DNA of 36,357 nucleotides from Bacteroidia bacterium. Its GTDB lineage: Bacteria; Bacteroidota; Bacteroidia; Bacteroidales; VadinHA17. The first letter of the stretch is position 1; each line of letters begins with the position of its first letter. The stretch covers positions 1 to 36,357 of the forward strand of contig JAPLDX010000053.1 of the NCBI GenBank assembly GCA_026391215.1, in the 5' to 3' direction. Shown piece by piece: positions 20,101 through 34,852 of this stretch. The notes below the pieces were generated by a model, which made no database searches, was not told where the DNA came from, and worked only from the letters and a program-made list of their open reading frames with translations. The translations under genes and the position numbers were made by a program.

Positions 20101-21066
20101 TTAATTAACAGTAAATGCCAGCCCTATTTCAAATGGGAACAAGTCAATGCCATCCGGGCTTTTGCCTGGCTTAAAAAGAGGAGTGAGGTAATAAGTTCCG
20201 TAAATATGGAAATTCTCAAATCCGAAGCGGGCAGTGGCGCCATATCTCAGAAGATTCAGGCTGAAATCACCGTCTGATGTTATCTTGTCACCGTTCTCAA
20301 AGACCATTCTTGAAATTGAATACACTTTGATGGCTCCTACCGGGCCAAAAGCCAGGTTGAGAGTATGATAATCTGCAGGTATCTGAATCTCAAGAAGGAA
20401 GGGAAGGTTCAGGTATAAAGTAGAAAGCCGCGATTTTTTAAGTACTTCACCCGGATCAAGAATTTCAATGATACCAGCTTCTCCTTTCTGTATATTATTA
20501 TTACCGTCAAATCTGTAATTATTCATATTAAGACCAAGTCCTGTGACAATTCCAAAATGTCTTGTAAATCCCAGGCTCCATTGTGAGAAATTTAAATTGA
20601 AATTCACTGATTTTGATGAATGGAGATTCATGTAATCAATGCTTTCAGGTAATGTAAGGCTGTTATCGGAGGTAAGATAATTATTTATTCCTGCCTCTAC
20701 AGCGCCCCAATGACCCTTGAATTGACTCCTTCTGTTTGCCCTGTTGTCGCGTTTATCTTCATCATCCTTATAATATTCAAAATATGAATCTTCTTCATCC
20801 TTATCATATTTTTCAAACTGGATCTTTGATTCACCTTCTTCAAGGTTCTCAAGGATAACTACTCCCCGGTTACCCACTTTTACCCTGACTTCATCCTGGT
20901 CATCCTCAACGACCACCATTTCGTCACCTACAATTACCCTGGTGATTTCATTTGTATCCGATACGATTTCCTGCCGACCGGGTTCTTTGTTCTCACCCCG
21001 GGTTTCCTGGCAGAATCCCTGGGTCATTATTGCTGATAGCAATAGAAATATTCCGATTTTTTTCAT
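20101..21066 (-). CDS. Outer-membrane beta-barrel protein (PorT/OMP_b-brl_2-like) with acidic N-terminal domain
   Basis: Signal peptide MKKIGIFLLLSAIMTQGFC-Q, alternating beta strands (GIVTGLGLNMNNYRF, YLNLPFLLE, RYGATARFG), terminal EIGLAFTVN. Start moved to 21066. Confidence 0.75.
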   Translation of the reverse strand: MKKIGIFLLLSAIMTQGFCQETRGENKEPGRQEIVSDTNEITRVIVGDEMVVVEDDQDEVRVKVGNRGVVILENLEEGESKIQFEKYDKDEEDSYFEYYKDDEDKRDNRANRRSQFKGHWGAVEAGINNYLTSDNSLTLPESIDYMNLHSSKSVNFNLNFSQWSLGFTRHFGIVTGLGLNMNNYRFDGNNNIQKGEAGIIEILDPGEVLKKSRLSTLYLNLPFLLEIQIPADYHTLNLAFGPVGAIKVYSISRMVFENGDKITSDGDFSLNLLRYGATARFGFENFHIYGTYYLTPLFKPGKSPDGIDLFPFEIGLAFTVN

Positions 21067-21096
21067 GACTGTCCTTTTAATTATTTCTGATGCAGG

Positions 21097-21123
21097 GACG
21101 TATTGCATGTCTGAAAAGTTACA
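21097..21123 (-). promoter_or_regulatory. Putative ECF-sigma promoter (TGTAAC-N17-CGTC) upstream of the beta-barrel gene
   Basis: Shares TGTAACTTTTC and CGTC with the site upstream of the sigma gene. Confidence 0.65.
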
Positions 21124-22222
21124 GTGAAGGATTGGATTTTTTAACAGGAGTGTTAATTTTCAATACTCTTGAACTGAAATATAATGATTTCACCTCTCCT
21201 TCTTCATCATTGTTTTCTACAAGGGCCATTTCCCAACCGAGAAGTTCGTTAAGGCCTTCAATTCCGGCTTCGGCTAATTCGTACGGTTTAAGCGGAGAAT
21301 CATCGTACTCTTTATCTTTCAATATCTTTTCCCTGAAAGCGCTTGCAATGAACCTTCTTAACTTGCTTCTTTCACTATCGTAATACGGAATCTCTTCAAT
21401 GACTATGTTTGAAGCAACCAATGAAGGAGCGGCAATTCCCATACTGATTTCAAGATCTGCAGAAACAGGAATTGCAGATATTAAAAATTCAGGGCTTCTC
21501 TCTGAAAATGAAGAAGAATCTTGCTGTAAAAATGCCACCGGCAGATCTATAATCCGAGATTCACCAGGTACAAAGATTTCAATACCGGAATTCGTTTCAG
21601 AAGCTTCTGATTGATATTGTACTTTGGAGGCGAGGTTTTCTATAGAGGTTATAACTGCACCAGGTTTGAGGAGAACAGTATCATTAAATGAATTTTCTGC
21701 AATCAATTCATTCGCTGTTTCCCTGGAGCGCGGAACAAAAATGTAACTCAATACTATTATGGCAATTGTTGCTGCAGCACTCAAACCAATAACGGATAAA
21801 CGCAATATTTTTTCTGTCCGGGTTCTCTTTCTTAAGAGATTTTTATTCCTGAACCTTATTTCCGGAGGTCTTAACCTGGTCCTCTGAATGGAATCAAATA
21901 GTATCCTGTTCTCAGGATTTCCGGAAATATTCTCTTTCAGGTCTTTAATTTGTGCATCGGGAAGATCATTTTCAAGATAAGCAACAGAAAGATATTCAAT
22001 CTGTGAAGGAGGCAATTCCGAGGCACTTTTCTTAAGATTTTTCTTTTCCAGCGTCCTGATGTTGTCCGGGGAGATGAGGGTTAATGATAATGAATCGGCT
22101 TCCTCCTTAAGATCAGGATTTTCATCAAGGAACGTCATAAGCTGTTCAGTACGGGCTTCATTCAGATTTCCGTCCAGCCAGTCAATTAGCCATATTTCAT
22201 AATTTGATCTGTCGGGTTTCAT
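21119..22222 (-). CDS. Putative anti-sigma factor (single TM)
   Basis: Lies 2 nt downstream of the ECF sigma. N-terminal NYEIWLIDWLDGNL..FLDENP anti-sigma-like helices, TM LSAAATIAIIVLSYIF, low-complexity periplasmic linker. Confidence 0.75.
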   Translation of the reverse strand: MKPDRSNYEIWLIDWLDGNLNEARTEQLMTFLDENPDLKEEADSLSLTLISPDNIRTLEKKNLKKSASELPPSQIEYLSVAYLENDLPDAQIKDLKENISGNPENRILFDSIQRTRLRPPEIRFRNKNLLRKRTRTEKILRLSVIGLSAAATIAIIVLSYIFVPRSRETANELIAENSFNDTVLLKPGAVITSIENLASKVQYQSEASETNSGIEIFVPGESRIIDLPVAFLQQDSSSFSERSPEFLISAIPVSADLEISMGIAAPSLVASNIVIEEIPYYDSERSKLRRFIASAFREKILKDKEYDDSPLKPYELAEAGIEGLNELLGWEMALVENNDEEGEVKSLYFSSRVLKINTPVKKSNPSL

Positions 22223-22224
22223 GG

Positions 22225-22710
22225 CTACAGAACAGTTTCAATTTTACCTATGTAATTTCTCAGGGCAACCCTGCCCCTGTATATTGATATTTTTACCTGG
22301 GCTTCAGTCATACCGGTTATCTCTCCAATCTCTCTATAACTATATCCCTCATAATCACGCAGAAGTAAAGAAGTCTTTTGTTGTTCCGGCAAACGTTCAA
22401 GAGCAGAATGCAGTATTTCGTTAAGGTCGGGATACTGTGATTCGTACAGCAGATCAGCTTCATGGTATTCTTCAAGAACTGTCATTCTCTTTTCTTTACG
22501 GATAATGTCAATCATTTCATGATAGGCTGTTGAGAATAACCAGGATTTAGCAACAACAAATTCTATTTCGGCAACACGTCTCCACAGCTTCTCAAAGCTG
22601 TCCTGGACAATATCATTTGCCCGGTCTTCATCCTTAAGATCAGCACGGATGAAGCGGTAAACAGAATCGGCATATTCTTCAACAGATCTGTTATATTCTT
22701 CTACTGTCAT
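22225..22710 (-). CDS. ECF RNA polymerase sigma-70 factor
   Basis: Region 2 (ANDIVQDSFEKLW, KSWLFSTAYH) and region 4 (ALERLPEQQK..LLRDYEGYSYREIGEI..VKISIYRGR). 161 aa. Confidence 0.96.
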   Translation of the reverse strand: MTVEEYNRSVEEYADSVYRFIRADLKDEDRANDIVQDSFEKLWRRVAEIEFVVAKSWLFSTAYHEMIDIIRKEKRMTVLEEYHEADLLYESQYPDLNEILHSALERLPEQQKTSLLLRDYEGYSYREIGEITGMTEAQVKISIYRGRVALRNYIGKIETVL

Positions 22711-22883: not shown

Positions 22884-24296
22884 TTATTTTTTCGGCTGGT
22901 ACACTCTTATCCAATCTATTTCCATTGAAGTCATGCTGCTGATGGGCTTATCGAGGCCCCCCGAGAAGAGGATATACATTGGCTCCTGCGGGACATCTGT
23001 TGTCTGGACAAATGCTTCAGTATCATTGACTTTCCAGACGAGCTTATCAGGGGTCCATTCAAGTGTGAAGATGAAGAAATCATTAGCATATTTTGAACCG
23101 ACTGAACCCTTTACCTTTTTCTCCGGTGTTGCAAAGTAATCAAACTGCACCTTGCCGTTTGAAGTGCGGCAAACATCCAAATGGGGAGTTATTTTATCCG
23201 CAAGCAGCCAGAATGCGCCTTTGGTTGCCGGATTTCCGAGCTTAATCTTTGCTGTGAAAGTACCATACTTCTGACGGAAACTTTTTCCGGTATTTATAAT
23301 TCCTGAAGTATACGCAAATTCCTTTGTTTTAAAACCATCAGTACTCCAAACCTTGCCCTCTTTCTTTTGTGGTTTTGTTATGATCTTAAGTACACTGTTG
23401 CGGATTTCAAAATTATCTTTTTCAGTGTATGCCTGGAGATCGTTGCCCACAGTGTAATTGTCCTTAAGAAGCTTATCACCCCAGAAATAATTTGTCAGCC
23501 ATGTTTTAGTATCCAGCTTGTCACCGTCAAATTCATCACTGAAAATGAGCTCCCTGTTTTTCAGGACATCAAATTTATTTGAATCTTTTACCTTACAATA
23601 CCACAGAATATCCTCGTTCTTTTTCATTCTGTCATACTCTTGTAGCTCCTTGAACATCTCAGATTTTTCGAATCTTTTCTTATCGAGAAGATAATTTTTC
23701 TTTTCCTTGAAATCATCGGTAGCAACATATTCCTTTAGTTCATTGTAACGTGCAAGGCGCGTTGAACCGTCGGTATTCAGGAAATTAGCGTACTCTTTTG
23801 ATTTTTTAAATGTATAGTAATCTTTGATCTCAGAGCTTGATTTCAGACGGTTATATTCCTGGAGCTTTTTGTCATCATCAGTCCCTTTAAATTCCTTGGA
23901 CTTCATCTTTTCCCTGAATTCTACAGACTGAACAAGCTTCTCAAGAGATTCATATCCCGTTATTTTGTCAGAACCATCAAGCTCCTTGAATTTCTTAAGA
24001 GCCGATCCGGCTATGGTTCTGAAATAGAGTACAATATCTTTTGCTTTTTGCAGTGCGAGTAACTCTTTCTCTTTTGCATATTCCCCGGAATTCTTAAAGC
24101 TGAGCGACTCTATCTCTTTCTTTTTCTGAAGAAAATCAGATGAGGTGACCAGTTCTTTCAGCTCATTATATTTTTTCAGGGTATCTGACTCTGCAAACGC
24201 TTTTAGCTTGTCAAATTCTGCTATCAGCGCCTTTTCGGCCTGTTCAATTTTAGCGGTTGACGGGATCATTCCCAGAAGAAACTTGAGACTTGCCAT
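22884..24296 (-). CDS. GH16-like domain protein (catalytic motif absent) with three N-terminal ~70-aa helical repeats
   Basis: C-terminal LIFSDEFDG, YTSGIINT, QKYGTFTAKIK, AFWLL, FTLEWTPDKLVWKVN, PMYILFS and MEIDWIRVYQ are GH16 (laminarinase-type) hallmarks. ExDxxE is replaced by HLDVCR. No clear signal peptide. Confidence 0.82.
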   Translation of the reverse strand: MASLKFLLGMIPSTAKIEQAEKALIAEFDKLKAFAESDTLKKYNELKELVTSSDFLQKKKEIESLSFKNSGEYAKEKELLALQKAKDIVLYFRTIAGSALKKFKELDGSDKITGYESLEKLVQSVEFREKMKSKEFKGTDDDKKLQEYNRLKSSSEIKDYYTFKKSKEYANFLNTDGSTRLARYNELKEYVATDDFKEKKNYLLDKKRFEKSEMFKELQEYDRMKKNEDILWYCKVKDSNKFDVLKNRELIFSDEFDGDKLDTKTWLTNYFWGDKLLKDNYTVGNDLQAYTEKDNFEIRNSVLKIITKPQKKEGKVWSTDGFKTKEFAYTSGIINTGKSFRQKYGTFTAKIKLGNPATKGAFWLLADKITPHLDVCRTSNGKVQFDYFATPEKKVKGSVGSKYANDFFIFTLEWTPDKLVWKVNDTEAFVQTTDVPQEPMYILFSGGLDKPISSMTSMEIDWIRVYQPKK

Positions 24297-24480
24297 TGCA
24301 TAAATGTTTTAAGTACAACTGATAAAGATAAAAATCTTTCCTGAATAATTAATCCGGATATTTAAAATTAATAAGATTCACACCGAAAACTATTAAGTGA
24401 AATTTATAGATCCGGGAAAATAAATAACGTCAATTTGTAAAATTTATTGAAAATAATTTGTACAAATAAAATTTCATATT

Positions 24481-24506
24481 TATCTTTGACTAACCGTTCA
24501 ATCAAA
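24481..24506 (+). promoter_or_regulatory. -7 box (TATCTTTG) overlapped by a putative TetR operator palindrome TTTGACTAACCGTTCAATCAAA
   Basis: 16 of 22 positions are dyad-symmetric. The site lies between the promoter box and the tetR ATG at 24510. Confidence 0.6.
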
Positions 24507-24509
24507 AAC

Positions 24510-25142
24510 ATGTCACCAAGGACACCACAACAGTTTAAGGAGATGAGGGAAGAGAAAATGACCCTCATAATGGACGTTGCATTAGAGCATTTTGCCAATG
24601 AAGGCTACTTCAGAACAACAATAAGCCATATTGCAAGGCATGCAGGAATATCAAAAGGCCTGATGTACAATTATTTTGATAGCAAAGAAGCTTTACTGAA
24701 AGCAATTATTCATCGATCGGTGAATGAAGTATATAAGTATTTAGACATTGACAGGGACGGATACCTTTCAGACGATGAATTCGAATTCTTTATGAGAAAA
24801 ATTAACGTGCTTTTAAAAGAAAAACGGTACTTCTGGCGGCTATTGATGCAGCTTCTAATGCAAAATGATGTCAGGGAACAATTTCTGGAAGCATTCCCGG
24901 AGTCGGATTCACTGATACATCCCGGCCATGAACCGGGAGACAACTATTACCCATTGCAGATGGTGAAAATGATCAAAGATTATTTTGTTAGAAAAAAAGG
25001 GAAATCCGGAAAACAGTATGATCCTGACAGTGAGATCAACATGTTTTATATTACTATGATGGGTTTTGCAGTGAAGAGCATTTATTCGAATACTGATGAT
25101 AATGAAAAGGCAATAAACAGGCTAATTGAGTTATATAAATAG
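24510..25142 (+). CDS. TetR/AcrR family regulator with EF-hand-like loop
   Basis: HTH ALEHFANEGYFRTTISHIARHAGISKGLMYNYFDSKEALL, then DIDRDGYLSDDE loop. Start moved to ATG 24510. Confidence 0.94.
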   Translation: MSPRTPQQFKEMREEKMTLIMDVALEHFANEGYFRTTISHIARHAGISKGLMYNYFDSKEALLKAIIHRSVNEVYKYLDIDRDGYLSDDEFEFFMRKINVLLKEKRYFWRLLMQLLMQNDVREQFLEAFPESDSLIHPGHEPGDNYYPLQMVKMIKDYFVRKKGKSGKQYDPDSEINMFYITMMGFAVKSIYSNTDDNEKAINRLIELYK

Positions 25143-25148
25143 ACTTTC

Positions 25149-25913
25149 ATGAAAAATAGATTAACAATTATAATTTTCTTTATTGTCTCAGGTTGCTGTA
25201 TCAATCCGCTTAAAGCACAGGAATTAAGTGCTACAGAAATCATAAAGAAAACCGATGAAAAGTTCAAGGGAGAACAGAGTGGCTACAGCGTCATGGCAAT
25301 GACCATTGTAAGGCCGGCATGGCAAAGGACGGTCGAATTCAAATCATGGGCAAAGGAGAATGACTATGCACTAACACTTATTACTGCACCAGCCCGGGAA
25401 AAAGGACAAACATTCCTGAAGCGCAAGAACGAAATGTGGAGCTGGAATCCTTCAATCAACAGACTGATCAAGCTGCCTCCTTCAATGATGTCGCAGGGCT
25501 GGATGGGCTCTGACTATACAAATGATGATATTCTAAGCGAGTCATCTGTTGTAAATGATTACACGCATACCCTTGAGGGAGAAGAGACAATTGATGGTAA
25601 TCCCTGCTATAAAATAAAGCTGACAGCTAAGGAAGATGCTGACATCCTTTGGGGCTCCCAGATGTGGTGGGTCATTAAAAAAGACTTTATAGCAATAAAG
25701 GCTGAGCTTTACGATGAAGACGGATATCTTGTAAGGTCAGAAACTGCTTCTGACCTTAAGATTATGGATGGGAGGCTACTTCCCTCTTATCTTGAAATTG
25801 TTCCTGCAGATGCAGAGGGACAAAAAACAATTGTCAGAATTATTGAAATGAAGTTCAATATTAAACTGGAAGAGAGCTTTTTCTCACAGCAGAACATGAA
25901 GACTATCAGATAA
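25149..25913 (+). CDS. LolA-like outer membrane lipoprotein-sorting protein
   Basis: Signal peptide, then APAREKGQTFLK..EMWSWNP, SMMSQGWMGSDYTNDD and FFSQQNMK, typical of the LolA_like family found with FtsX-type ABC permeases. Confidence 0.85.
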   Translation: MKNRLTIIIFFIVSGCCINPLKAQELSATEIIKKTDEKFKGEQSGYSVMAMTIVRPAWQRTVEFKSWAKENDYALTLITAPAREKGQTFLKRKNEMWSWNPSINRLIKLPPSMMSQGWMGSDYTNDDILSESSVVNDYTHTLEGEETIDGNPCYKIKLTAKEDADILWGSQMWWVIKKDFIAIKAELYDEDGYLVRSETASDLKIMDGRLLPSYLEIVPADAEGQKTIVRIIEMKFNIKLEESFFSQQNMKTIR

Positions 25914-25933: not shown

Positions 25934-27349
25934 ATGAAAGATTATCAGCTGGCGTGGAAAAACCTCTGGCGCAACAAGAGAAGAACACTGATCACTGCGG
26001 CTTCAGTGTTTTTTGCTGTCTTCTTTGCGCTTGTCATGCGTTCATTTCAACTAGGGGCCTATGACCGGCTTTTCAAGAACGTCATTGAGTCATACAGCGG
26101 ATATCTGCAGCTGCAGCATGAAGACTATTTTGATGATCCGAATCTTGATAACACTTTTAAAATTGACCAGACCCTGATTGATCAGATGAAGGAAGATCCC
26201 AATGTAAATGATGTTGTTCCAAGGCTTGAATCCTTTGCGCTGGCAGCGGCTGGCAGTCATACGCAGGGAGTTATTGTTCTGGGAATTGATCCTGATCGTG
26301 AAGATAAGGTGATGAAAATCAGCAATAAACTGGTTAAATACAAATTAACCTCCGGGACCATTGGAAAACTGAAAAATGATTCAATACCCGACAAAACAAA
26401 AAAACTTCTTGATGTCTTCAGCAATGAAGCCTATTACAGTGAAGCTCGTCTTATGATGGATCTGGGTATCAGCGATGAAGACAGTGCGACTATTCTTCCG
26501 ATCATCAGAAGGCACGCTTCTATAAGCAATGGATATCTGACAGAAAACGGAACTAGCGAAGTAGTAATTGGTGATGGACTTTCAGAATATCTTAAAGCCG
26601 GAGTAGGTGATACAATTGTTTTAATGGGTCAGGGTTATCATGGAACAACAGCAGCAGGCAAATATATGGTGAAGGGAATTATCAAGCTGCCTGCTCCGGA
26701 TATAGATAATGTAATTGTCTATATTCCGATTGAAAGTGCCAGGGAACTTTATGCGGCTCCCGGTATGGCAACTTCAGCAGTAATAAGTCTTAACAGCAAC
26801 GACGACAATGATATTCTGCAAACTGGAAATCGCCTGCAGAAAATAATCTCTGATCCAATGATTATAAAAACATGGCAGCAACTGAATGCGCTGATGGTCA
26901 ACCAGATGGAAGCTGATAACAAGAGCGGTATGATAATGATCGCAGTTCTTTATATGGTAATTGCTTTCGGCGTTTTTGGTACAGTCCTGATGATGTTGGC
27001 TGAAAGGAAGAGGGAATTCGGAATGCTTGTATCTATTGGCATGAAGAAAAAAAGGCTGGCAAAGGTCATATCCCTGGAGATGCTTTTCATAGGTTTTCTT
27101 GGTGTTGCAGCAGGTGTTGCCGGATCACTGCCGTTAGTATTTTACGGGAATATACATCCTCTGAAGTTTACAGGAGAGTTTGCAAGAATGTATGAGGATA
27201 TGGGATTTGAGGCGGTAATGCCCACAATGCTGCCGGATACTTTTTACCTGTGGCAGGTCGTGGTTGTACTGGTAATTTTAGTGATCGCAATTATATTCAG
27301 TACACGCAAGATTTTCAGGATGAATGTTATTAATGCAATGAGAGCTTAA
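25934..27349 (+). CDS. ABC transporter permease, LolC/E-MacB-FtsX family
   Basis: LAWKNLWRNKRRT, large periplasmic domain, TVLMMLAERKREFGMLVSIGM, 4 TMs. Confidence 0.93.
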   Translation: MKDYQLAWKNLWRNKRRTLITAASVFFAVFFALVMRSFQLGAYDRLFKNVIESYSGYLQLQHEDYFDDPNLDNTFKIDQTLIDQMKEDPNVNDVVPRLESFALAAAGSHTQGVIVLGIDPDREDKVMKISNKLVKYKLTSGTIGKLKNDSIPDKTKKLLDVFSNEAYYSEARLMMDLGISDEDSATILPIIRRHASISNGYLTENGTSEVVIGDGLSEYLKAGVGDTIVLMGQGYHGTTAAGKYMVKGIIKLPAPDIDNVIVYIPIESARELYAAPGMATSAVISLNSNDDNDILQTGNRLQKIISDPMIIKTWQQLNALMVNQMEADNKSGMIMIAVLYMVIAFGVFGTVLMMLAERKREFGMLVSIGMKKKRLAKVISLEMLFIGFLGVAAGVAGSLPLVFYGNIHPLKFTGEFARMYEDMGFEAVMPTMLPDTFYLWQVVVVLVILVIAIIFSTRKIFRMNVINAMRA

Positions 27350-27359
27350 ACAGAAAAAC

Positions 27360-28787
27360 ATGATTACAGCGATAGCCTGGAAAAACGTCTGGAGAAACAA
27401 AACGAGAAGCCTGATAGTTATTGCCGCAGTGACAATAGGTGTCTTCGCCGGAATTTTCTCAATGGCCGCAATAAACAGCACCGTCGTGCAGAGAATTGAT
27501 GCTGCCGTTAATGAAGAACTTTCCCATATTCAGGTGAACAATAAGGATTTCCGGAAAAGCACCGATATTCAGAATGTCATCAGCGACTATCAGGGAGTTG
27601 TCGCTGCACTTGAATCCACTCCTGGTGTAACAAAAGTAACCGGCAGGATCATTATCAGGGGAATTGCCTCAACAGCTATAAAAAGCGCAGGGGTTGAAAT
27701 AACCGGAATTGATGTTGAGAAAGAGAAAGAGATATTCACTATATCCGAAAAGCTTATTCCCGGAACCGGGAGCTTTTTCGAAACAGATACTAAATTTAAC
27801 ACAGTATTTATCGGTGAAAAACTGGCGAAGGAGCTGAATATTATCAGGTACATCATTACTCCCGAATCAATAATCATATTAACAGACGAAGGAGTCCCGA
27901 CAGATATTATTTCAAAAGTTGGAACACTTCAGGGACAACGATTTGTATCGGATAAGAAATTTATAAAAGCCTGCGAAAAGATTCTTGAACCTTCGGAGAT
28001 GGAAAAATACGAATGGAAGATCAAGGAAGCAGCCTGGTCATACAGGGAGGGCTCCAAGATCGTCCTTTCGTTCCTCGATATAAATAATAACCAGACCGGC
28101 GCTGCATTCAGGGTAAGCGGCATATTCAGAACTAACAATGATATGTTTGAATCACTTTCCCTATTTGTTCCCATGGATGAGCTGAGACAGCTTACAGGGA
28201 TGGAGAAAGGTGCTTTTCACAGGGTTATAGCCAGGCTTGAAAATAATGATATTACAAATAGCGTAACCCCTGTAATAAGAGAAAAACTAGTAGATTATGA
28301 GGTGCTTAACTGGAAGGAAATTCAACCCGATCTTGCAATGATCACGGATTTTATAGAACAGATCTATGGCGTTTTTATGGCGTTAATACTTGCTGCCCTG
28401 GCATTCGGGATTGTAAATACAATGCTTATGTCAGTTCTTGAAAGGACCAGGGAACTGGGAATGCTGATGGCGATAGGGATGAACCGCAGAAAAATATTCA
28501 TAATGATAATGTTGGAATCAATTTTCCTGTCAATTGTAGGCGGTTTTGCAGGAATGGCTGTCAGTGAGGTTGTGATTACAATCACAGGGAAAACAGGCAT
28601 TAATCTTGTGAAATATTCCGAAGGTATGGAGGCTATAGGCTATTCGGCATACCTGTTTCCAACCATTGATACACAGTTCTTTATTACAACAACAATTCTT
28701 ATCGTTCTTACAGGAATATTATCAGCAATTTACCCGGCGCGCAAAGCTTTAAAGCTTAGTCCTGTTGAGGCATTAAGAGGGGAGTAG
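27360..28787 (+). CDS. ABC transporter permease, LolC/E-MacB-FtsX family
   Basis: IAWKNVWRNKTRS, NTMLMSVLERTRELGMLMAIGM, YPARKALKLSPVEALR. Confidence 0.93.
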   Translation: MITAIAWKNVWRNKTRSLIVIAAVTIGVFAGIFSMAAINSTVVQRIDAAVNEELSHIQVNNKDFRKSTDIQNVISDYQGVVAALESTPGVTKVTGRIIIRGIASTAIKSAGVEITGIDVEKEKEIFTISEKLIPGTGSFFETDTKFNTVFIGEKLAKELNIIRYIITPESIIILTDEGVPTDIISKVGTLQGQRFVSDKKFIKACEKILEPSEMEKYEWKIKEAAWSYREGSKIVLSFLDINNNQTGAAFRVSGIFRTNNDMFESLSLFVPMDELRQLTGMEKGAFHRVIARLENNDITNSVTPVIREKLVDYEVLNWKEIQPDLAMITDFIEQIYGVFMALILAALAFGIVNTMLMSVLERTRELGMLMAIGMNRRKIFIMIMLESIFLSIVGGFAGMAVSEVVITITGKTGINLVKYSEGMEAIGYSAYLFPTIDTQFFITTTILIVLTGILSAIYPARKALKLSPVEALRGE

Positions 28788-28811
28788 AAACATTGAAAAT
28801 TGACAAAAACC

Positions 28812-29501
28812 ATGGCAGTAGTAGAAATCAATAACGTTTTTAAGACCTATCATGATACAGAAGTTGAAGTGAAGGCAATTAACGGAGTAACGCTAAGTTT
28901 CGAGAAAGGGGACTTTGCTGTAATAGTTGGCCCTTCGGGATCCGGGAAGACGACATTGCTCAATCTTGTCGGAGGCCTGGATCAGCCAACCGGAGGCGAA
29001 ATTCTGATTGCGGGCCATCGTCTGTCAGAACTCCGGTCCTCAGAGCTTATTGACTTCAGGATGGATCATGTGGGATTTGTCTTTCAGTCCTATAATCTAA
29101 TTCCTGTGCTTACAGCTGCCGAAAATGTGGGATTTATTATGAACCTTCAGAAATGGCCAAAGGAAAAACGCATGGCAAGGACAGATGAACTTCTTTCATC
29201 AGTCGGACTTGCCGACAGGCATAAAAGCCGCCCGTCGCAGCTGTCAGGCGGTCAGCAGCAGAGAGTAGCGGTCGCCCGCGCCCTGGCAACACACCCTGAA
29301 TTCATACTTGCTGATGAACCGACAGCTAACCTCGATTCCAAATCTGCTGAATCCCTTCTCGATATAATGGAAAAACTGAACCATGAAGAGGGAATGACAT
29401 TTATCTTTTCAACTCATGACACAAGAGTAATGAAAAGGGCCCATCGTGTTATCACGCTGGAAGACGGAAAAGTAGTTTCAGATGAAATAAGAACGGAATG
29501 A
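28812..29501 (+). CDS. ABC transporter ATP-binding protein, LolD/MacB-type
   Basis: Walker A GPSGSGKT, GFVFQSYNL, signature LSGGQQQRV, Walker B ILADEPTANLD, H-loop STHD. Confidence 0.96.
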   Translation: MAVVEINNVFKTYHDTEVEVKAINGVTLSFEKGDFAVIVGPSGSGKTTLLNLVGGLDQPTGGEILIAGHRLSELRSSELIDFRMDHVGFVFQSYNLIPVLTAAENVGFIMNLQKWPKEKRMARTDELLSSVGLADRHKSRPSQLSGGQQQRVAVARALATHPEFILADEPTANLDSKSAESLLDIMEKLNHEEGMTFIFSTHDTRVMKRAHRVITLEDGKVVSDEIRTE

Positions 29502-29517: not shown

Positions 29518-30672
29518 ATGAAAAAAATATTACTTGTTTCAACCTTACTGATAATTCTGAATTCAGCACTTTTCTCTCAGGAGGAAAAACAAAAACCTTT
29601 TGAGCTGAACGGATACCTGACAACAATGCAAAGTGCTATGTTTGATACTCTTTCAGGACCGGTCTTTTATGAAAACCTTCTGAATAACAGGCTTAATTTC
29701 AAAGGGTATATTAATGATAAAATAACTTTAGCTGTTGAATTGAGAAACCGTCTTTTTACGGGTGATATGGTCAGGTCATATTACGGTTATTCTGATATGA
29801 TCGCAACAGATGAGGGTTGGGTTGACATGTCATGGAATATTGTTGATGAAAAATCCTTCTTTTTGAATACGACCATTGACAGGGCATGGGTAGACTTGAA
29901 TCTAAATAAGTTCCAGGCAAGAATAGGACGCCAGAGGATCAACTGGGGACAAACATTCGTCTGGAATCCGAATGATATTTTTAATGCCTATTCCTTTTTT
30001 GATTTTGATTACATAGAAAGACCGGGCAGCGATGCAGTGAGACTCCAGTATTATCCATCCTTTTCATCAGCAATTGAAATTGCTGCAAAAATTGACAGTG
30101 AAGAAGATATAACCGCTGCAGGCTTATACCGGTTCAGTAAATGGGGCTACGATATCCAGTTCCTGGCCGGGTATTCAAACAGCTCAGATATTGTTGCAGG
30201 AACCGGATGGTCAGGCTCAATCGGATCGATATCATTCCGGGGTGAAGCATCATGGTTCAGGCCGCTGGAAAACTTCAGCGATACTACCGGTACAACAATC
30301 ATAACTGCAGGGATTGATAAGGTTTTTGAAAACAACTCAATTGTCCAGTTTCAGGTGATGTACTGCAATAATCCGCTTAAGCTGAATAATTTCTCAAGTT
30401 TTTATTCAGGCAATCTCTCAGCAAAAGATCTTGCATTTTCAGAGTTTTCAGCTTTCGGACAGTTCACCTGGGCAGCAACTCCACTAATGAATGTTGGAGT
30501 GTCAGCGATGTGGTTCCCTGATCTTAAAGGTTATTTTGCCGGTCCATCATTTGACTATTCCCTTGCTGAAAATGTTGATTTCTCACTTATATGGCAGCAT
30601 TTCAACGCTGAAATGGGAGGATCCAAAACAAGGATAAACATTGGATTCCTGAGAGTTAAATACAGTTTCTAA
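29518..30672 (+). CDS. Predicted outer-membrane beta-barrel protein of unknown function
   Basis: Signal peptide ending ALFS-Q, motifs IDRAWVD, RIGRQRINWG, WNPNDIFN, ERPGSDAVR, amphipathic strands, C-terminal RVKYSF BAM-type signal. Confidence 0.8.
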   Translation: MKKILLVSTLLIILNSALFSQEEKQKPFELNGYLTTMQSAMFDTLSGPVFYENLLNNRLNFKGYINDKITLAVELRNRLFTGDMVRSYYGYSDMIATDEGWVDMSWNIVDEKSFFLNTTIDRAWVDLNLNKFQARIGRQRINWGQTFVWNPNDIFNAYSFFDFDYIERPGSDAVRLQYYPSFSSAIEIAAKIDSEEDITAAGLYRFSKWGYDIQFLAGYSNSSDIVAGTGWSGSIGSISFRGEASWFRPLENFSDTTGTTIITAGIDKVFENNSIVQFQVMYCNNPLKLNNFSSFYSGNLSAKDLAFSEFSAFGQFTWAATPLMNVGVSAMWFPDLKGYFAGPSFDYSLAENVDFSLIWQHFNAEMGGSKTRINIGFLRVKYSF

Positions 30673-30713: not shown

Positions 30714-31451
30714 ATGGCACTGGTGCATGAATTTGAGAATAGCGGCAACTGGCTATTTAAACGAAGGGGCTGGCTTCCTGTTTTTATGGTTGTTGCCGGA
30801 ATTGTAATGATGTATCTTGGGAACAGGCAGGCAATAATATTTGACCTGCGTGATGAAATGATATTTCTTGGTATAAGCCTTTTTGGTGAGGCAATTCGCA
30901 TAATCACTGTCGGATTCGCTGCAAAAAACACATCAGGACGAAATACGGCGGCAGGGCAGATTGCAGATGAACTCAATGTAACCGGTGTCTATTCAATTGT
31001 AAGGCATCCTCTTTATGTTGGGAACTTTTTTATGTGGCTGGGGCCAGTTCTTTTCCTGAAGTCTGCCTGGTTTACAGTTGTTTTCTGCCTTGTTTACTGG
31101 CTCTATTATGAGAGAATAATGTTTGCTGAAGAACAGTACCTGAGAAGAAAGTTCAGCGAGGAGTATGACAGATGGTCAGAGAAGGTCAGTGCTTTTATTC
31201 CGTTCACATTTAAATTCATAAAGCCGAAGCTTCCATTCTCAATGCGCAATGTGCTCAGCAGAGAATACAACAGCTTAGTAAATATTTTCTTAATATTTAC
31301 AGTCCTTGATTTTTGCAGGAATTATTTTCTTACAGAGAAATTTTTCTTTACACAGACCTGGATCTATTCACTGGCAGGAGCTGCAATAATATGGATCATC
31401 GTAAGATCGATCCATAAGTATACAAAATGGCTTGAAGTAAAGGGGAGATAA
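30714..31451 (+). CDS. ICMT/PEMT-family membrane methyltransferase, LmtA-like (lipid A phosphate methyltransferase)
   Basis: GVYSIVRHPLYVGN and YERIMFAEEQYLRRKF ICMT motifs. The KNTSGRNT motif and termini resemble Leptospira LmtA as I recall it. Confidence 0.8.
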   Translation: MALVHEFENSGNWLFKRRGWLPVFMVVAGIVMMYLGNRQAIIFDLRDEMIFLGISLFGEAIRIITVGFAAKNTSGRNTAAGQIADELNVTGVYSIVRHPLYVGNFFMWLGPVLFLKSAWFTVVFCLVYWLYYERIMFAEEQYLRRKFSEEYDRWSEKVSAFIPFTFKFIKPKLPFSMRNVLSREYNSLVNIFLIFTVLDFCRNYFLTEKFFFTQTWIYSLAGAAIIWIIVRSIHKYTKWLEVKGR

Positions 31452-31468
31452 TATTATAGCCGAAAACG

Positions 31469-31768
31469 ATGCCAGGATACCTTAATAAAGTATTTTCATT
31501 TCTTCTTTCCATCCCGGTTTATTTATACAAATATGCCATTTCACCTTATCTGCGGCCTGCATGCAGACACATACCTTCCTGTTCGCAGTACATGCTTGAT
31601 GCGCTGAGGATTCATGGACCTTTTTCCGGATTTTTAATGGGGACCAACAGAATATTGCGATGCAGACCAGGAGGAACACATGGCTACGACCCTGTTCCAC
31701 TTTTCCGGTTTAAAAGATATAAGCCTTTTAAGCGATATGAAAAATGCAACCGTCTAAAACAATCCTAA
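31469..31768 (+). CDS. yidD: Membrane protein insertion efficiency factor YidD
   Basis: YKYAISP..CRHIPSCSQY..HGPFSG..RILRCRPGGTHGYDPVP. Confidence 0.93.
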   Translation: MPGYLNKVFSFLLSIPVYLYKYAISPYLRPACRHIPSCSQYMLDALRIHGPFSGFLMGTNRILRCRPGGTHGYDPVPLFRFKRYKPFKRYEKCNRLKQS

Positions 31769-31799: not shown

Positions 31800-32549
31800 T
31801 TAAAAATTCAACTCTTCTTTAAGGTGTTTATAGCCGGCCCTGCTTACCGGGAGCTTTTCCCCTGACTTAAGGACAGCAACATGATTATCCTTTTCATAGG
31901 GTTCAATTCGGTTGATCTCCTGGACCCTGACAATATATGAACGATGAATTCTTACAAAATCATTTACAGGCAGGTTCTCCTCATAGAACTTCATTGTCTG
32001 TTGTTTTAATGCTTTACCGGCAGAATGATATATCATCACGTAATCATCCTGAGCCTCAACATACTTAACCTGTTCAACAGGGATAAGATTAATGGCATTG
32101 CCTTTACGTACCACTATCCTGTTGACAGGAGCAGCTGTTTCAGGTTTTTTTGCCAGCAGCTGTCCCGGATCCGGGATCTCTGTCCCTGACCGGATCTTGT
32201 CAGCAGCTTTATTGACAGCATCAAGGAAACGTCTTTTAGGGAAAGGTTTTAGAAGATAATCCACTGCATTAAGCTCGAAAGCTTTTAAAGCAAACTGGTC
32301 ATAAGCCGTGGTAAAGATAATCGCGGGTTTTTCGGTAAGAACCTCAAGCAATTCAATCCCGGTGAGCCTGGGCATCTGAATATCAAGAAAAACAAGGTCG
32401 GGTTTCAAGACTGAAATTGATTTCAATCCCGAAAAGCCGTCGCCGCATTCAGCTATAACATCAATAAAATCCAGTTCTTTTAAATAATGCTTGATAATTT
32501 CCCGGGCAGGGGCTTCATCTTCAATTATTATGGTCCTGATCTTTTCCAT
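31800..32549 (-). CDS. LytTR family response regulator
   Basis: Receiver (IIEDE, FLDIQMP, FTTAYD, DYLLKP) plus LytTR domain (FVRIHRSYIV, LPVSR). Confidence 0.96.
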   Translation of the reverse strand: MEKIRTIIIEDEAPAREIIKHYLKELDFIDVIAECGDGFSGLKSISVLKPDLVFLDIQMPRLTGIELLEVLTEKPAIIFTTAYDQFALKAFELNAVDYLLKPFPKRRFLDAVNKAADKIRSGTEIPDPGQLLAKKPETAAPVNRIVVRKGNAINLIPVEQVKYVEAQDDYVMIYHSAGKALKQQTMKFYEENLPVNDFVRIHRSYIVRVQEINRIEPYEKDNHVAVLKSGEKLPVSRAGYKHLKEELNF

Positions 32550-32638
32550 CTTTTTACGGATTCCTGTAAACCCCTTTGCCTGTAAGTATTTTGGGGATTT
32601 ACGGACCTTAAATATAAAAATAAAATTTCAAATGGCAA

Positions 32639-33694
32639 TCACTTATAATCTACAGGAATATAAAGACTTACAGTATATATCCCGTTTTCTTTTGTGGTTT
32701 TTATTGATGCTTTATTCCCATAGAACAATTCAAGTCTCCTGGCAACATTTAACAAGCCGGTTCCTGTTCCTTTCCTCATTGCCGGGGAAGGATCATAATT
32801 ATTGCTGATTATAAATTCAACATATCCTTCAACCATTCTTACCCTGGTGGTAATCCTGACACATTCTGTGCTTTCATAAACGCCATGCTTTATAGCATTT
32901 TCATAAAGCGGCTGCAGGATCATTACAGGCATTTTTATTTCGAGACACTTTTCATCGATTTCCTCATCAGTAGATAGTTTGTCGCCGAACCTGACTTTTT
33001 CTATCTCAAGATAAAGCCTCAGGTTCTCAAGTTCACTTCTGAGCGAAACAGGCTGTTCATCTTTCTTCGAAAGTGCATATCTCATGAACTCGGAAAGCTT
33101 AATGACCATATCCCTTGCTTTTTCAGGATCAGTAATTGTCAATGAGCTTACTGAATTGAGGCTGTTAAAAAGAAAATGAGGATTGATCTGGGAACGGAGC
33201 ATCTTCAGCTCGGTTTCCTTTACGAGAGTTTCCAGCTTTGCCTCCCTTGACTTTTTTTCCGAGAGGTTAGTAAGGCTGACAAACAGGAAATAGGTAAGGA
33301 TTATCAGCCCGAAAATAAAAACACTTGTTCCGATCCTGTAAGGAAGCGTGGCGGTCCAGTATGCTTCAAAACCTGATTGTTGCGGAAGTATTAATGTCAG
33401 AAGCAATTTTGTTATCAGTATCCAGAATACTATGGTAATAATTCCAGTTGCTGCCAGATTTAAAACAAGGGAAAATGGCTTTGTATTATTCTTGTTGAGG
33501 AAGCTGAAAGGGTACCATAACGATAATGCTATCCCTGAGTATATCAAAAGGGACAATCCGGAATCAAGTATACTGATATTGACGAAACTGCCATATGCAT
33601 AATAATATATAAGTGCCTGGCCCAGCGCAAGAAACAGCCAGACCAGCCACCATACCACCATACGTACCCTGTTTTCAAGTACAGGATGTTTCAT
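32639..33694 (-). CDS. LytS/YehU-type sensor histidine kinase
   Basis: About four N-terminal TMs, LRSQINPHFLFNSLN, LQPLYENAIKHG, GTGTGLLNV. Confidence 0.95.
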   Translation of the reverse strand: MKHPVLENRVRMVVWWLVWLFLALGQALIYYYAYGSFVNISILDSGLSLLIYSGIALSLWYPFSFLNKNNTKPFSLVLNLAATGIITIVFWILITKLLLTLILPQQSGFEAYWTATLPYRIGTSVFIFGLIILTYFLFVSLTNLSEKKSREAKLETLVKETELKMLRSQINPHFLFNSLNSVSSLTITDPEKARDMVIKLSEFMRYALSKKDEQPVSLRSELENLRLYLEIEKVRFGDKLSTDEEIDEKCLEIKMPVMILQPLYENAIKHGVYESTECVRITTRVRMVEGYVEFIISNNYDPSPAMRKGTGTGLLNVARRLELFYGNKASIKTTKENGIYTVSLYIPVDYK

Positions 33695-33705
33695 TTTGGA
33701 ATGTT

Positions 33706-34458
33706 TTAATAGCTTTTCACCTCACCTCCGCCAAAAACGACGGCTCCCTTTATCACCAGCTGGCTGACATTATCAACTGTTCTTCCGGGAAAGAGTTTTC
33801 GGGAGTCGGTGAATCCGCCAAGAACGGGTGTAACTTCGATAGTAACATACCATGTATCCGGTATAATAATGGTTACACCACCGAAAACGGCGGCTATTTC
33901 AAGTATATTTCTGCCAGGAGCCAGTTTTGCCTTTGTTAGGTCAAGATCGATACCTCCGAAAACGGATGCTACCTTGCCTCCCCGGAAATTCTGCGAAATA
34001 ACCTGCCGCTCATTTCCGCTGAAAATTGTTGCATAATCTATTAGATCTTCGCTTTCCATGCCTTTGGATGAAATCCCACCCCAGCCTTTTCGCTTGGTAA
34101 CAATAAAAATGATACCGATGATTATGAAAATTGAAGGCCAGAACATATTATACATATGGAATGTCTCCCGGAAGACCAACGGTATCATGAAAAATCCGCC
34201 AACAGCCATTACGATTATCCCTCCTGTCTTTTCTGATGCTCCGAGAGTCATTACAAGCCCAATGGCTACGAGAAGCATCGGCCAGCTGAATATCACATGA
34301 TCGATAAAATCGGGGAAAAATCCTGTGTTTCTTATGACCAGGAACAATCCTGCAAGAACCAGTATAACCCCTATGATCACCCTGTTATTTGTAAGATGAG
34401 AACGCTCGTGTCCTAACGGATTCCGGTTATCATCCTTAAAATCATTTATTGTTTCCAT
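33706..34458 (-). CDS. LiaF-like cell-wall-active antibiotic response membrane protein (DUF5668 + DUF2154-like)
   Basis: Four TMs with WPMLLVAIG/FWPSIFII, C-terminal beta domain with repeated VFGG motifs (FGGIDLDL, VFGGVTIIIP, VFGGGEVK). Confidence 0.85.
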   Translation of the reverse strand: METINDFKDDNRNPLGHERSHLTNNRVIIGVILVLAGLFLVIRNTGFFPDFIDHVIFSWPMLLVAIGLVMTLGASEKTGGIIVMAVGGFFMIPLVFRETFHMYNMFWPSIFIIIGIIFIVTKRKGWGGISSKGMESEDLIDYATIFSGNERQVISQNFRGGKVASVFGGIDLDLTKAKLAPGRNILEIAAVFGGVTIIIPDTWYVTIEVTPVLGGFTDSRKLFPGRTVDNVSQLVIKGAVVFGGGEVKSY

Positions 34459-34483
34459 AATTGTAAATTTATTTGTTTCTTAA

Positions 34484-34852
34484 TTATTTGCTGATGTTTT
34501 TTCTTTTAAATATTGAAGAAATGATAAATGAAATCCCTATCAGCATTATTACTGCAGGCCAATAGACAGTTTTAATCAATGTCGGAATTTCACCATAAAA
34601 ATCATCAATCAAAAACCAGGCACCCCCCGCCATAAGAAGCAATCCGGGGATGAACTGGAGGTTAAGCAGCATGAGAACACCGACGAAAATCATCGCTGTT
34701 TCCCAGGTAAAGTACTCCTTTATACCTCCAAGATGCAGCATATCGTTGGTTGCCACCAGGAGAGCGACTCCAAGGGCAATAAAGAAGAGACCGATGCCAA
34801 TTTGTGGATGGTGCTCCCTGTGTTTGTGCAGATAATGATCATAATGTTTCAT
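34484..34852 (-). CDS. Small 4-TM membrane protein (LiaF/DUF5668-like TM domain) with His-rich N-terminus
   Basis: GLFFIALGVALL, FTWETAMIFVG and YWPAVIMLIG parallel the TM part of the downstream gene. Confidence 0.75.
   Translation of the reverse strand: MKHYDHYLHKHREHHPQIGIGLFFIALGVALLVATNDMLHLGGIKEYFTWETAMIFVGVLMLLNLQFIPGLLLMAGGAWFLIDDFYGEIPTLIKTVYWPAVIMLIGISFIISSIFKRKNISK

Follow-up and report, generated by a model that had tools for sequence, protein, structure and literature searches.

Can a bacterial repressor of the TetR family read cytosolic calcium through an EF-hand built into its own fold? The question is raised by a gene in a 36,357-nucleotide stretch of DNA (the window: positions 1 to 36,357, forward strand, of contig JAPLDX010000053.1, assembly GCA_026391215.1) from a Bacteroidia bacterium of the order Bacteroidales. 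A sequence-only reading of the window had noticed the acidic series D-I-D-R-D-G-Y-L-S-D-D-E at 24744-24779, placed just after the helix-turn-helix (HTH) and between two helices of a TetR regulator, and had proposed that it forms an EF-hand Ca2+ loop. We put the probability that Ca2+ acts as a signal through this loop, the protein being an autorepressor with a Ca2+-binding EF-hand-type site, at about 0.4; it is likely that the loop binds some metal. Metal binding, the identity of the metal and its coupling to DNA binding are what we infer from the sequences. The elements on which the argument turns are the following.

24510 to 25142, plus strand: TetR/AcrR-family repressor gene (P0001), 210 amino acids (aa), with an ATG start, identified by translation and Pfam.
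24567 to 24707, plus strand: TetR_N helix-turn-helix DNA-binding domain, aa 20-66 (Pfam PF00440, E 6.2e-16, 58.4 bits against a cut-off of 24).
24684 to 24743, plus strand: helix α4 (aa 59-78), which leads into the EF-hand-like unit, assigned by DSSP on the AlphaFold2 model.
24744 to 24779, plus strand: 12-residue EF-hand-type loop DIDRDGYLSDDE, aa 79-90 (codon reading, Pfam, pattern fit and conservation).
24771 to 24821, plus strand: helix α5 (aa 88-104), the exit helix, whose first residue is loop position 10 (DSSP on the AlphaFold2 models).

The window protein is a member of the TetR/AcrR family, as had been proposed. Its TetR_N match lies above the curated Pfam cut-off, and the full-length AlphaFold2 model matches solved TetR structures. 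The model, built from a 68-sequence alignment, reached a mean predicted local distance difference test score (pLDDT) of 86.6 and a predicted template-modelling score (pTM) of 0.80, with poor confidence confined to residues 132-143. It comprises 10 helices and shows the all-helical, two-domain fold of about 9-10 helices by which the family is recognised. A Foldseek search with the whole model returned 197 matches at E ≤ 0.001 (best 4e-6), and those listed were all TetR-family or TetR-fold (LuxR/HapR-type) proteins; the best solved folds were of FadR type (3whb and 1vi0, template-modelling score up to 0.69). A sequence search of the Protein Data Bank with the whole protein brought up no close relative (best E 1.4e-9, mostly over the N-terminal part). 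The C-terminal domain is kept, with conserved W109, L111, Q118, Y158, F159, D171, F179 and G185. The gene is single-copy in the source genome (3.39 Mb, 98.9% complete). Its start was assigned to the ATG at 24510 because the orthologues read begin with MSPR, MSPK, MTPR, MCPR or MPR; a longer open reading frame (ORF) with a TTG start at 24447 was rejected as the gene on the same starts.

Codon reading confirmed that the acidic series occupies residues 79-90, and Pfam together with the AlphaFold2 model supported its setting just after the HTH, with TetR_N at aa 20-66, α4 at 59-78 and α5 at 88-104. The loop has potential ligands at positions 1, 3, 5, 9 and 12, with Gly in position 6 and a hydrophobic side chain in position 8. 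It fits a PS00018-style EF-hand pattern in the PROSITE-style scan that had been suggested as a check on the proposal, and it also matches the tighter consensus of the family, D-x-[DN]-x-D-G-x-[LIV]-[ST]-x-x-E-[FLM]. The Pfam model EF-hand_1 (PF00036) aligned residues 71-97 to profile positions 2-28 of 29 (E 1.3e-4, 21.7 bits) and was the best of several sub-threshold EF-hand models covering residues 71-106. In a six-frame scan of the 3.39-Mb genome, EF-hand_1 scored 24 bits at the TetR locus, and this was the only place with a match at E ≤ 0.01.

PS00018-type patterns are known for false positives, and a chance match of one protein to a short, loose pattern would be the simplest account of the loop. 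Shuffling of the window protein gave a fit to the loose pattern in about 0.1% of cases (215 of 200,000), but a fit to the tighter family consensus in 1 of 200,000. Because of this rarity, and because the motif stands at the same position in hundreds of relatives, a chance match is refuted by conservation and deserves virtually no credence; judged by these comparisons, the loop is an EF-hand-type motif under selection.

Conservation was high among close relatives, a set comprising the window protein and the 120 best of 2055 relatives (76-97% identical). Of these 121 proteins, 118 fit the EF-hand pattern, and the three exceptions differed at one to three loop positions. For greater distances, the best 150 representatives of 50%-identity clusters were compared, which are 32-83% identical and include several fragments; the pattern stands at the same position in 74 of them. 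Glu 12 is invariant in these 74, and position 8 is always Leu, Ile or Val; Gly was found at 6 in 73, Asp at 5 in 72, Asn (53) or Asp (20) at 3, and Thr, Ser or Glu at 9 in 70.

A further set of 80 rows was not selected for the motif and consisted of the window and 79 of the 80 best loci in species-representative genomes (L067, whose contig ends inside the segment, was omitted). Locus L080, which belongs to the named strain Sunxiuqinia elliptica, bears the motif. The sequence-only reading had made conservation of DxDxDG..E among orthologues a test of its proposal, and here the acidic positions are kept: 66 of the 80 rows fit the pattern, Asp or Asn occupies positions 1 and 3 in all 80, and an oxygen donor is present at 1, 3, 5 and 12 in all 80. 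Asp at 5 and Glu at 12 were each found in 79 rows and Leu or Ile at 8 in 80. The 14 misfits comprised 12 rows with Ser at 6, one with Ala at 6 and one with Asn at 1. All liganding positions, not just the capping ones, are kept across 28-90% segment identity. An alignment made without nine partial or interrupted loci (L054, L059-L061, L063, L064, L067, L077 and L079) left 72 full-length orthologues, of which 59 matched EF-hand_1 with E ≤ 0.01 and a best value of 8.9e-8, and some relatives bear precomputed PF00036 or PF13499 labels.

At loop position 2 the window protein has Ile, and 36 of the 74 fitting representatives and 38 of the 80 orthologues have Pro, the hallmark of lanmodulin EF-hands. 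In lanmodulin, according to PMC10949232, Pro at position 2 of each EF-hand is, together with Asp at 9, critical for specificity for lanthanides over calcium. The resemblance is a lead only. A different metal instead of Ca2+ in the site, perhaps a lanthanide in some members of the family, seems very unlikely: Asp at 9 occurs in only 1 of the 80 orthologues, the window protein has Ser there besides its Ile at 2, and we know of no reason for cytosolic lanthanide sensing in these bacteria.

The flanking helices predicted by the sequence-only reading appeared in both AlphaFold2 models. According to DSSP, residues 79-87 of the full model are non-helical, with α4 extending to residue 78, α5 starting at 88 and pLDDT of about 90 in the loop region. 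The model of a 47-aa fragment has residues 76-87 non-helical and the same exit-helix boundary at 88; in it, α4 and α5 are predicted to form an antiparallel hairpin. The exit helix of a canonical EF-hand begins at loop position 10, and as modelled, the helix-loop-helix with its exit helix from that position is the canonical EF-hand layout.

Sequence searches with this segment led to EF-hand proteins. Residues 66-105 alone (40 aa), compared with the sequences of solved structures, had only EF-hand proteins among the 60 best matches, including 1jfj (5.5e-7) and calmodulins near 4e-4. A 47-column profile of α4, loop and α5 built from the 80 rows gave 539 matches at E ≤ 1, and its 60 best were all EF-hand proteins, with no TetR among them. 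The profile value for calmodulin was 1.7e-8, although such whole-sequence E-values are inflated by the repeated EF-hands of the targets, and the best single-stretch values were near 0.006.

A palindromic operator overlapping the promoter had been proposed. The relevant elements are as follows.

24485 to 24506, no strand assigned: operator, an imperfect palindrome TTTGACTAACC/GTTCAATCAAA, 16/22 self-complementary and conserved upstream of the orthologues.
24481 to 24488, plus strand: TAtcTTTG, candidate -7 promoter box, whose TTTG is the start of the operator left arm (TAnnTTTGA[CA] in 74 of 79 regions).
24457 to 24460, plus strand: TTTG, candidate -33 element of a Bacteroidetes-type promoter (sequence and upstream spacing counts).

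We take TTTG / TAnnTTTG to be the consensus of Bacteroidetes-type promoters. In 79 upstream regions (the window and 78 loci), a site with at most one mismatch from the consensus TTGACYRRNCGKTCARTCA was found upstream of the TetR start in 75, the consensus having been derived from the same set on which it was scored; the left arm shares the TTTG of the -7 box, and the proposed overlap was thus upheld. Column counts at the TA of the -7 box were 75 of 77 for T and 76 of 77 for A. In 50 of the 79 regions, TAnnTTTGA is preceded by a further TTTG at a distance of 17-23 nt, most commonly 20 nt (32 cases). A repeat search with seed 6 did not report the palindrome at 24485-24506, which was seen by a direct self-complementarity check. 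The conserved palindrome is the predicted TetR operator over the gene's own promoter.

The operator is the sole perfect match in the 3.39-Mb genome. Other sites with 1-2 mismatches numbered three forward and three reverse, compared with four and five for a reversed control, and two weaker sites that were inspected (contigs C77 and C122) both lie inside long ORFs; the genome-wide operator search gave no sign of a wider regulon. In 33 of the 79 regions (loci L001, L002, L006, L007, L020, L046 and others), a second, more degenerate copy (e.g., TTGAATGAACGTTTAATCAAA) lies about 30 nt downstream of the first. The window has the first copy only, ending 3 nt before the ATG. Two operator copies also accompany a 64%-identical TetR with the motif at locus L018, on a 2.9-kb contig labelled as a Spirochaetes metagenome-assembled genome; the label is probably a binning error, because every other locus is labelled Bacteroidota.

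The predicted operator stands in front of an operon for an envelope ATP-binding cassette (ABC) system, whose further genes are listed below.

25149 to 25913, plus strand: LolA_like protein (Pfam PF17131, E 4.1e-52), starting 6 nt after the TetR stop.
25934 to 27349, plus strand: FtsX-type permease with a MacB-like periplasmic domain (Pfam, synteny).
27360 to 28787, plus strand: second FtsX-type permease (Pfam, synteny).
28800 to 29501, plus strand: ABC transporter ATPase (Pfam PF00005, E 1.1e-34; synteny).
29518 to 30672, plus strand: 384-aa secreted protein with a signal-peptide-like start and a C-terminal ...YSF; no Pfam family.

A LolA_like gene follows the TetR gene in 75 of the 80 loci, and the remaining five contigs end there. 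The two FtsX permeases and the ABC ATPase come next in almost every locus with a contig reaching that far, and a secreted protein of the 384-aa type lies downstream of the ABC gene in 56 of 80, a count bounded by the length of the flanks. The TetR gene had been described as heading a transporter operon, which agrees with the conserved order TetR-LolA_like-FtsX-FtsX-ABC-(outer-membrane protein). Because of its signal-peptide-like start and C-terminal ...YSF, the 384-aa protein may be an outer-membrane barrel and the dedicated outer-membrane component of the export system. Taken with the predicted operator, the operon is a putatively self-repressed one for an envelope ABC system.

The origin of the motif was approached by comparing the order with the phylum. 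Of 400 genomes sampled evenly across the phylum, 45, not counting the source genome of the window, had a relative at E ≤ 1e-20, and the motif was found in none of these 45 places (35 readable, 10 in which the frame was not located by the HTH pattern). Flanks were retrieved for 29 of these loci, and in 27 of them a LolA_like gene adjoins the relative. The 29 motif-less TetRs align to the window protein across α4, loop and α5 with a length difference of at most one residue, and mostly show an ordinary D/S-P helix cap at the place of the loop. In 300 evenly sampled genomes of the order Bacteroidales, 80 had a relative. The strict motif is present in 47 and a near variant in 5; it is absent from 23 places, and in 6 the frame was not located. 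The strict-motif count is a lower bound (at least 47 of 300). Among the best 29 order loci, 28 bear the motif, and they come from 23 family codes.

Because the motif-less TetRs of the same operon have a loop of equal length, the EF-hand site seems to have arisen in place, with no domain insertion. It is best read as convergent, analogous and not homologous to the EF-hand superfamily. It would thus appear that a phylum-wide regulator of a phylum-wide operon gained the full EF-hand signature in one order and kept it widely there. A tree of 123 full-length representatives, computed with FastTree after the loop columns had been taken out, had poor resolution, with stars on 11 of its 120 inner branches. 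The motif state has to change 24 times on this tree; shuffling gave a mean of 41.4 changes and a value as low in 0 of 500 shuffles. The starred branches force at least five changes, gain and loss not being distinguishable from the tree. The in-place origin is argued from the order-versus-phylum comparison because the tree is too weak for gain and loss.

Several observations weigh against a Ca2+ signal, and a number of them would suit a loop that binds no metal, D-x-D/N-x-D-G...S/T-x-x-E being a turn and helix cap that resembles an EF-hand and is kept for folding or protein contact. S/T-x-x-E at positions 9-12 is a classical helix-capping box and Asp, Asn and Gly are common turn formers, so part of the conservation needs no metal. 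Ser replaces Gly at position 6 in 12 of the 80 rows, 11 of which also have Asn at 1. This N1/S6 subclade (loci L046-L048, L050, L052, L054-L058, L060 and L061) retains Asp at 3 and 5, Thr at 9, Glu at 12, the operon and the operator, which suggests that strict EF-hand geometry is dispensable; it offers a natural test case for the importance of that geometry. The EF-hand_1 score of the window protein, 21.7 bits, is below the curated cut-off of 25.4. Pfam finds one EF-hand per chain, in one stretch, whereas canonical EF-hands act in pairs and unpaired ones are usually weak binders.

We base no reading of the loop geometry on the two structural comparisons of the 47-aa fragment. Foldseek gave no match at E ≤ 0.001; EF-hand proteins mostly filled its top ranks, but with E from 0.7 to 6 and under a score that includes sequence. 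The structure-only program VIA-align, run against 48,161 chains, returned generic helical hairpins (3356 at Z ≥ 2, none at Z ≥ 5, best Z 4.8), with no EF-hand protein in the best 50, and so did not single out EF-hands. Motif-less TetRs head the same kind of operon in other orders, so the motif would be an add-on that is not essential to the regulator. The loop is supported by sequence and by an AlphaFold2 model, which places no ions, and to our knowledge cytosolic Ca2+ signalling is not established in Bacteroidales.

A loop without metal nevertheless seems somewhat unlikely. Three or four un-neutralised carboxylates within nine residues would destabilise the turn, and every liganding position has been kept over the whole 28-90% range of segment identity. 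The hydrophobic pattern of the flanking helices also follows the EF-hand profile, over 27 of 29 Pfam positions, in keeping with the 60 best profile matches all being EF-hand proteins.

If the loop does carry a Ca2+ signal, the repressor could work as follows. The TetR protein, as an autorepressor, would bind the palindrome over its own promoter and shut off the whole operon from TetR to the outer-membrane protein. In the Bacteroidales lineage, the existing α4-loop-α5 hairpin would have been remodelled in place into an EF-hand-type site taking one Ca2+ per subunit. The ion would probably be held by the Asp or Asn side chains of positions 1 and 3, the Asp of position 5 and the main-chain carbonyl of position 7, by Ser or Thr at 9 via water, and by a bidentate Glu at 12. 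In TetR proteins, effector binding moves α4, so that the two recognition helices no longer fit the spacing of the operator. Helix α4 is in this family the lever from the DNA-reading head to the sensor body; with the site at its far end, filling or emptying of the site would change the α4/α5 angle or stiffness and hence the operator affinity. Bound Ca2+ would fix the α4/α5 junction, while the empty site, with four to five facing carboxylates, would loosen it; Ca2+ might thereby either strengthen or weaken repression. Cytosolic Ca2+ would then be a second input to the envelope-export operon, beside an organic, probably lipid-like, C-terminal ligand, and Ca2+ influx on envelope damage is a possible trigger.

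The same site could instead be structural, Ca2+ (or Mg2+) stabilising the α4-α5 junction while the organic, probably lipid-like, ligand of the C-terminal domain induces, so that the metal is bound without a signal. Such a division of labour would be in keeping with the retained C-terminal domain and its conserved residues, with the acyl-CoA and fatty-acid sensing TetRs (FadR, FasR) as nearest solved folds, with the hydrophobic cargo suggested by the LolA_like carrier of the operon, and with the motif-less TetRs that adjoin the same kind of operon in other lineages. However, the loop sits on the allosteric lever helix, and Glu at 12, present in 79 of the 80 rows, favours Ca2+ over Mg2+. A structural Ca2+ site would also be hard to keep filled at sub-micromolar cytosolic Ca2+, and because an unpaired EF-hand especially is unlikely to be permanently filled at such free concentrations, sensing is somewhat more plausible than a purely structural role. 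We regard the structural explanation as unlikely. Extending the sensing reading from this protein to its relatives, we consider it doubtful, yet worth stating, that a large Bacteroidales TetR clade consists of direct one-component sensors of cytosolic Ca2+, with a convergent EF-hand at the domain hinge controlling an envelope export machine.

Compared with known systems, the window protein is a TetR member that is, on paper, EF-hand-like and by descent outside the EF-hand superfamily. With FadR/FasR-type TetRs (3whb and 1vi0 of Bacillus subtilis, 3anp of Thermus thermophilus, 6o6o of Mycobacterium tuberculosis) it shares the overall fold (Foldseek E 4e-6 to 1e-4), an N-terminal HTH and, by prediction here, repression of an adjacent operon via a palindromic operator. 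FadR and FasR sense acyl-CoA or fatty acids; their identity to the window protein is 13-22% in the listed matches, and the acidic loop occurs in none of the three TetR alignments displayed. Canonical EF-hand sensors (calmodulin, Entamoeba CaBP1 1jfj, secretagogin, NCS-1) share the 12-residue loop with donors at 1/3/5/9/12, Gly at 6 and a hydrophobic residue at 8, as well as the hydrophobic pattern of the flanking helices and the exit helix from position 10, and they are the best sequence matches of the segment. In contrast to theirs, the TetR loop is single in its chain, lies inside a TetR fold, appears to have arisen from an ordinary hairpin and is known from sequence.

Short acidic loops of this kind recur: DxDxDG calcium-binding motifs in unrelated folds are said to have been described by Rigden and Galperin in 2004. 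The TetR loop resembles them as a short acidic loop arising convergently across structural contexts, but it has the full EF-hand signature, with Glu 12 and both helices, and its host is a transcription factor. The nearest functional analogue is DREAM/KChIP3, a transcriptional repressor with EF-hands that Ca2+ releases from DNA. It follows the logic proposed here, in which a repressor senses Ca2+ through an EF-hand of its own. Apart from being eukaryotic, DREAM/KChIP3 differs in carrying four EF-hands and in contacting DNA by an unrelated mode, and it has no evolutionary link to the window protein. Within the TetR family, PMC11672702 names inorganic sensors for heme and Zn (SczA, streptococci), with Cu only putative (ComR). 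SczA and ComR are alike in having an inorganic ion as the effector, which for the window TetR is proposed.

Our literature search, in which subscription journals lay outside the scope, turned up neither a TetR that contains an EF-hand nor one that senses Ca2+. Calcium, Ca2+ and EF-hand each occur 0 times in PMC13176608, which in 2026 surveyed the motifs of TetR ligand domains, and in PMC6223229, which has both 'TetR family' and 'EF-hand', EF-hand occurs just in a reference title.

Bacterial cytosolic Ca2+ signalling and its reader proteins are a long-standing question, and known bacterial Ca2+ responses run mostly via periplasmic two-component sensors. If the sensing reading is true, the window protein would be the first transcription factor with an EF-hand from a bacterium and a TetR that Ca2+ switches in nature, as well as a clear case of an EF-hand arising convergently inside an unrelated fold. 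With a built-in EF-hand, an operator of 22 bp and a defined operon as its target, such a repressor would open cytosolic Ca2+ sensing to simple assays. TetR proteins are standard parts of synthetic gene circuits, in which a natural Ca2+-responsive member, if real, would be immediately useful. Should the site turn out to be purely structural, or empty, what remains is a curious conserved loop within an ordinary regulator.

The genes around the operon are as follows.

20101 to 21108, minus strand: OMP_b-brl_2 outer-membrane protein.
21119 to 22222, minus strand: 367-aa protein with no Pfam family, which may be an anti-sigma factor.
22225 to 22710, minus strand: extracytoplasmic function (ECF) sigma factor.
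22884 to 24296, minus strand: 470-aa protein whose long N-terminal half is repetitive and rich in Lys/Glu, with a GH16-like domain at the C-terminus (Pfam E 3.7e-9).
30714 to 31451, plus strand: PEMT/ICMT-like membrane methyltransferase, directly after the operon.
31469 to 31768, plus strand: YidD homologue, directly after the operon region.
31800 to 34852, minus strand: consecutive genes for a LytTR response regulator, a His_kinase (PF06580) sensor and a pair of LiaF-like membrane proteins.

The PEMT/ICMT-like methyltransferase is found downstream in 30 of the 80 loci, most fetched flanks ending there, and may modify the exported lipid-like cargo. The row at 31800-34852 looks like an envelope-stress type two-component module adjoining the export operon. 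On the other side, the 470-aa gene at 22884-24296 is divergent from the TetR operon, and an opposite-strand relative of it lies upstream of TetR in many related loci.

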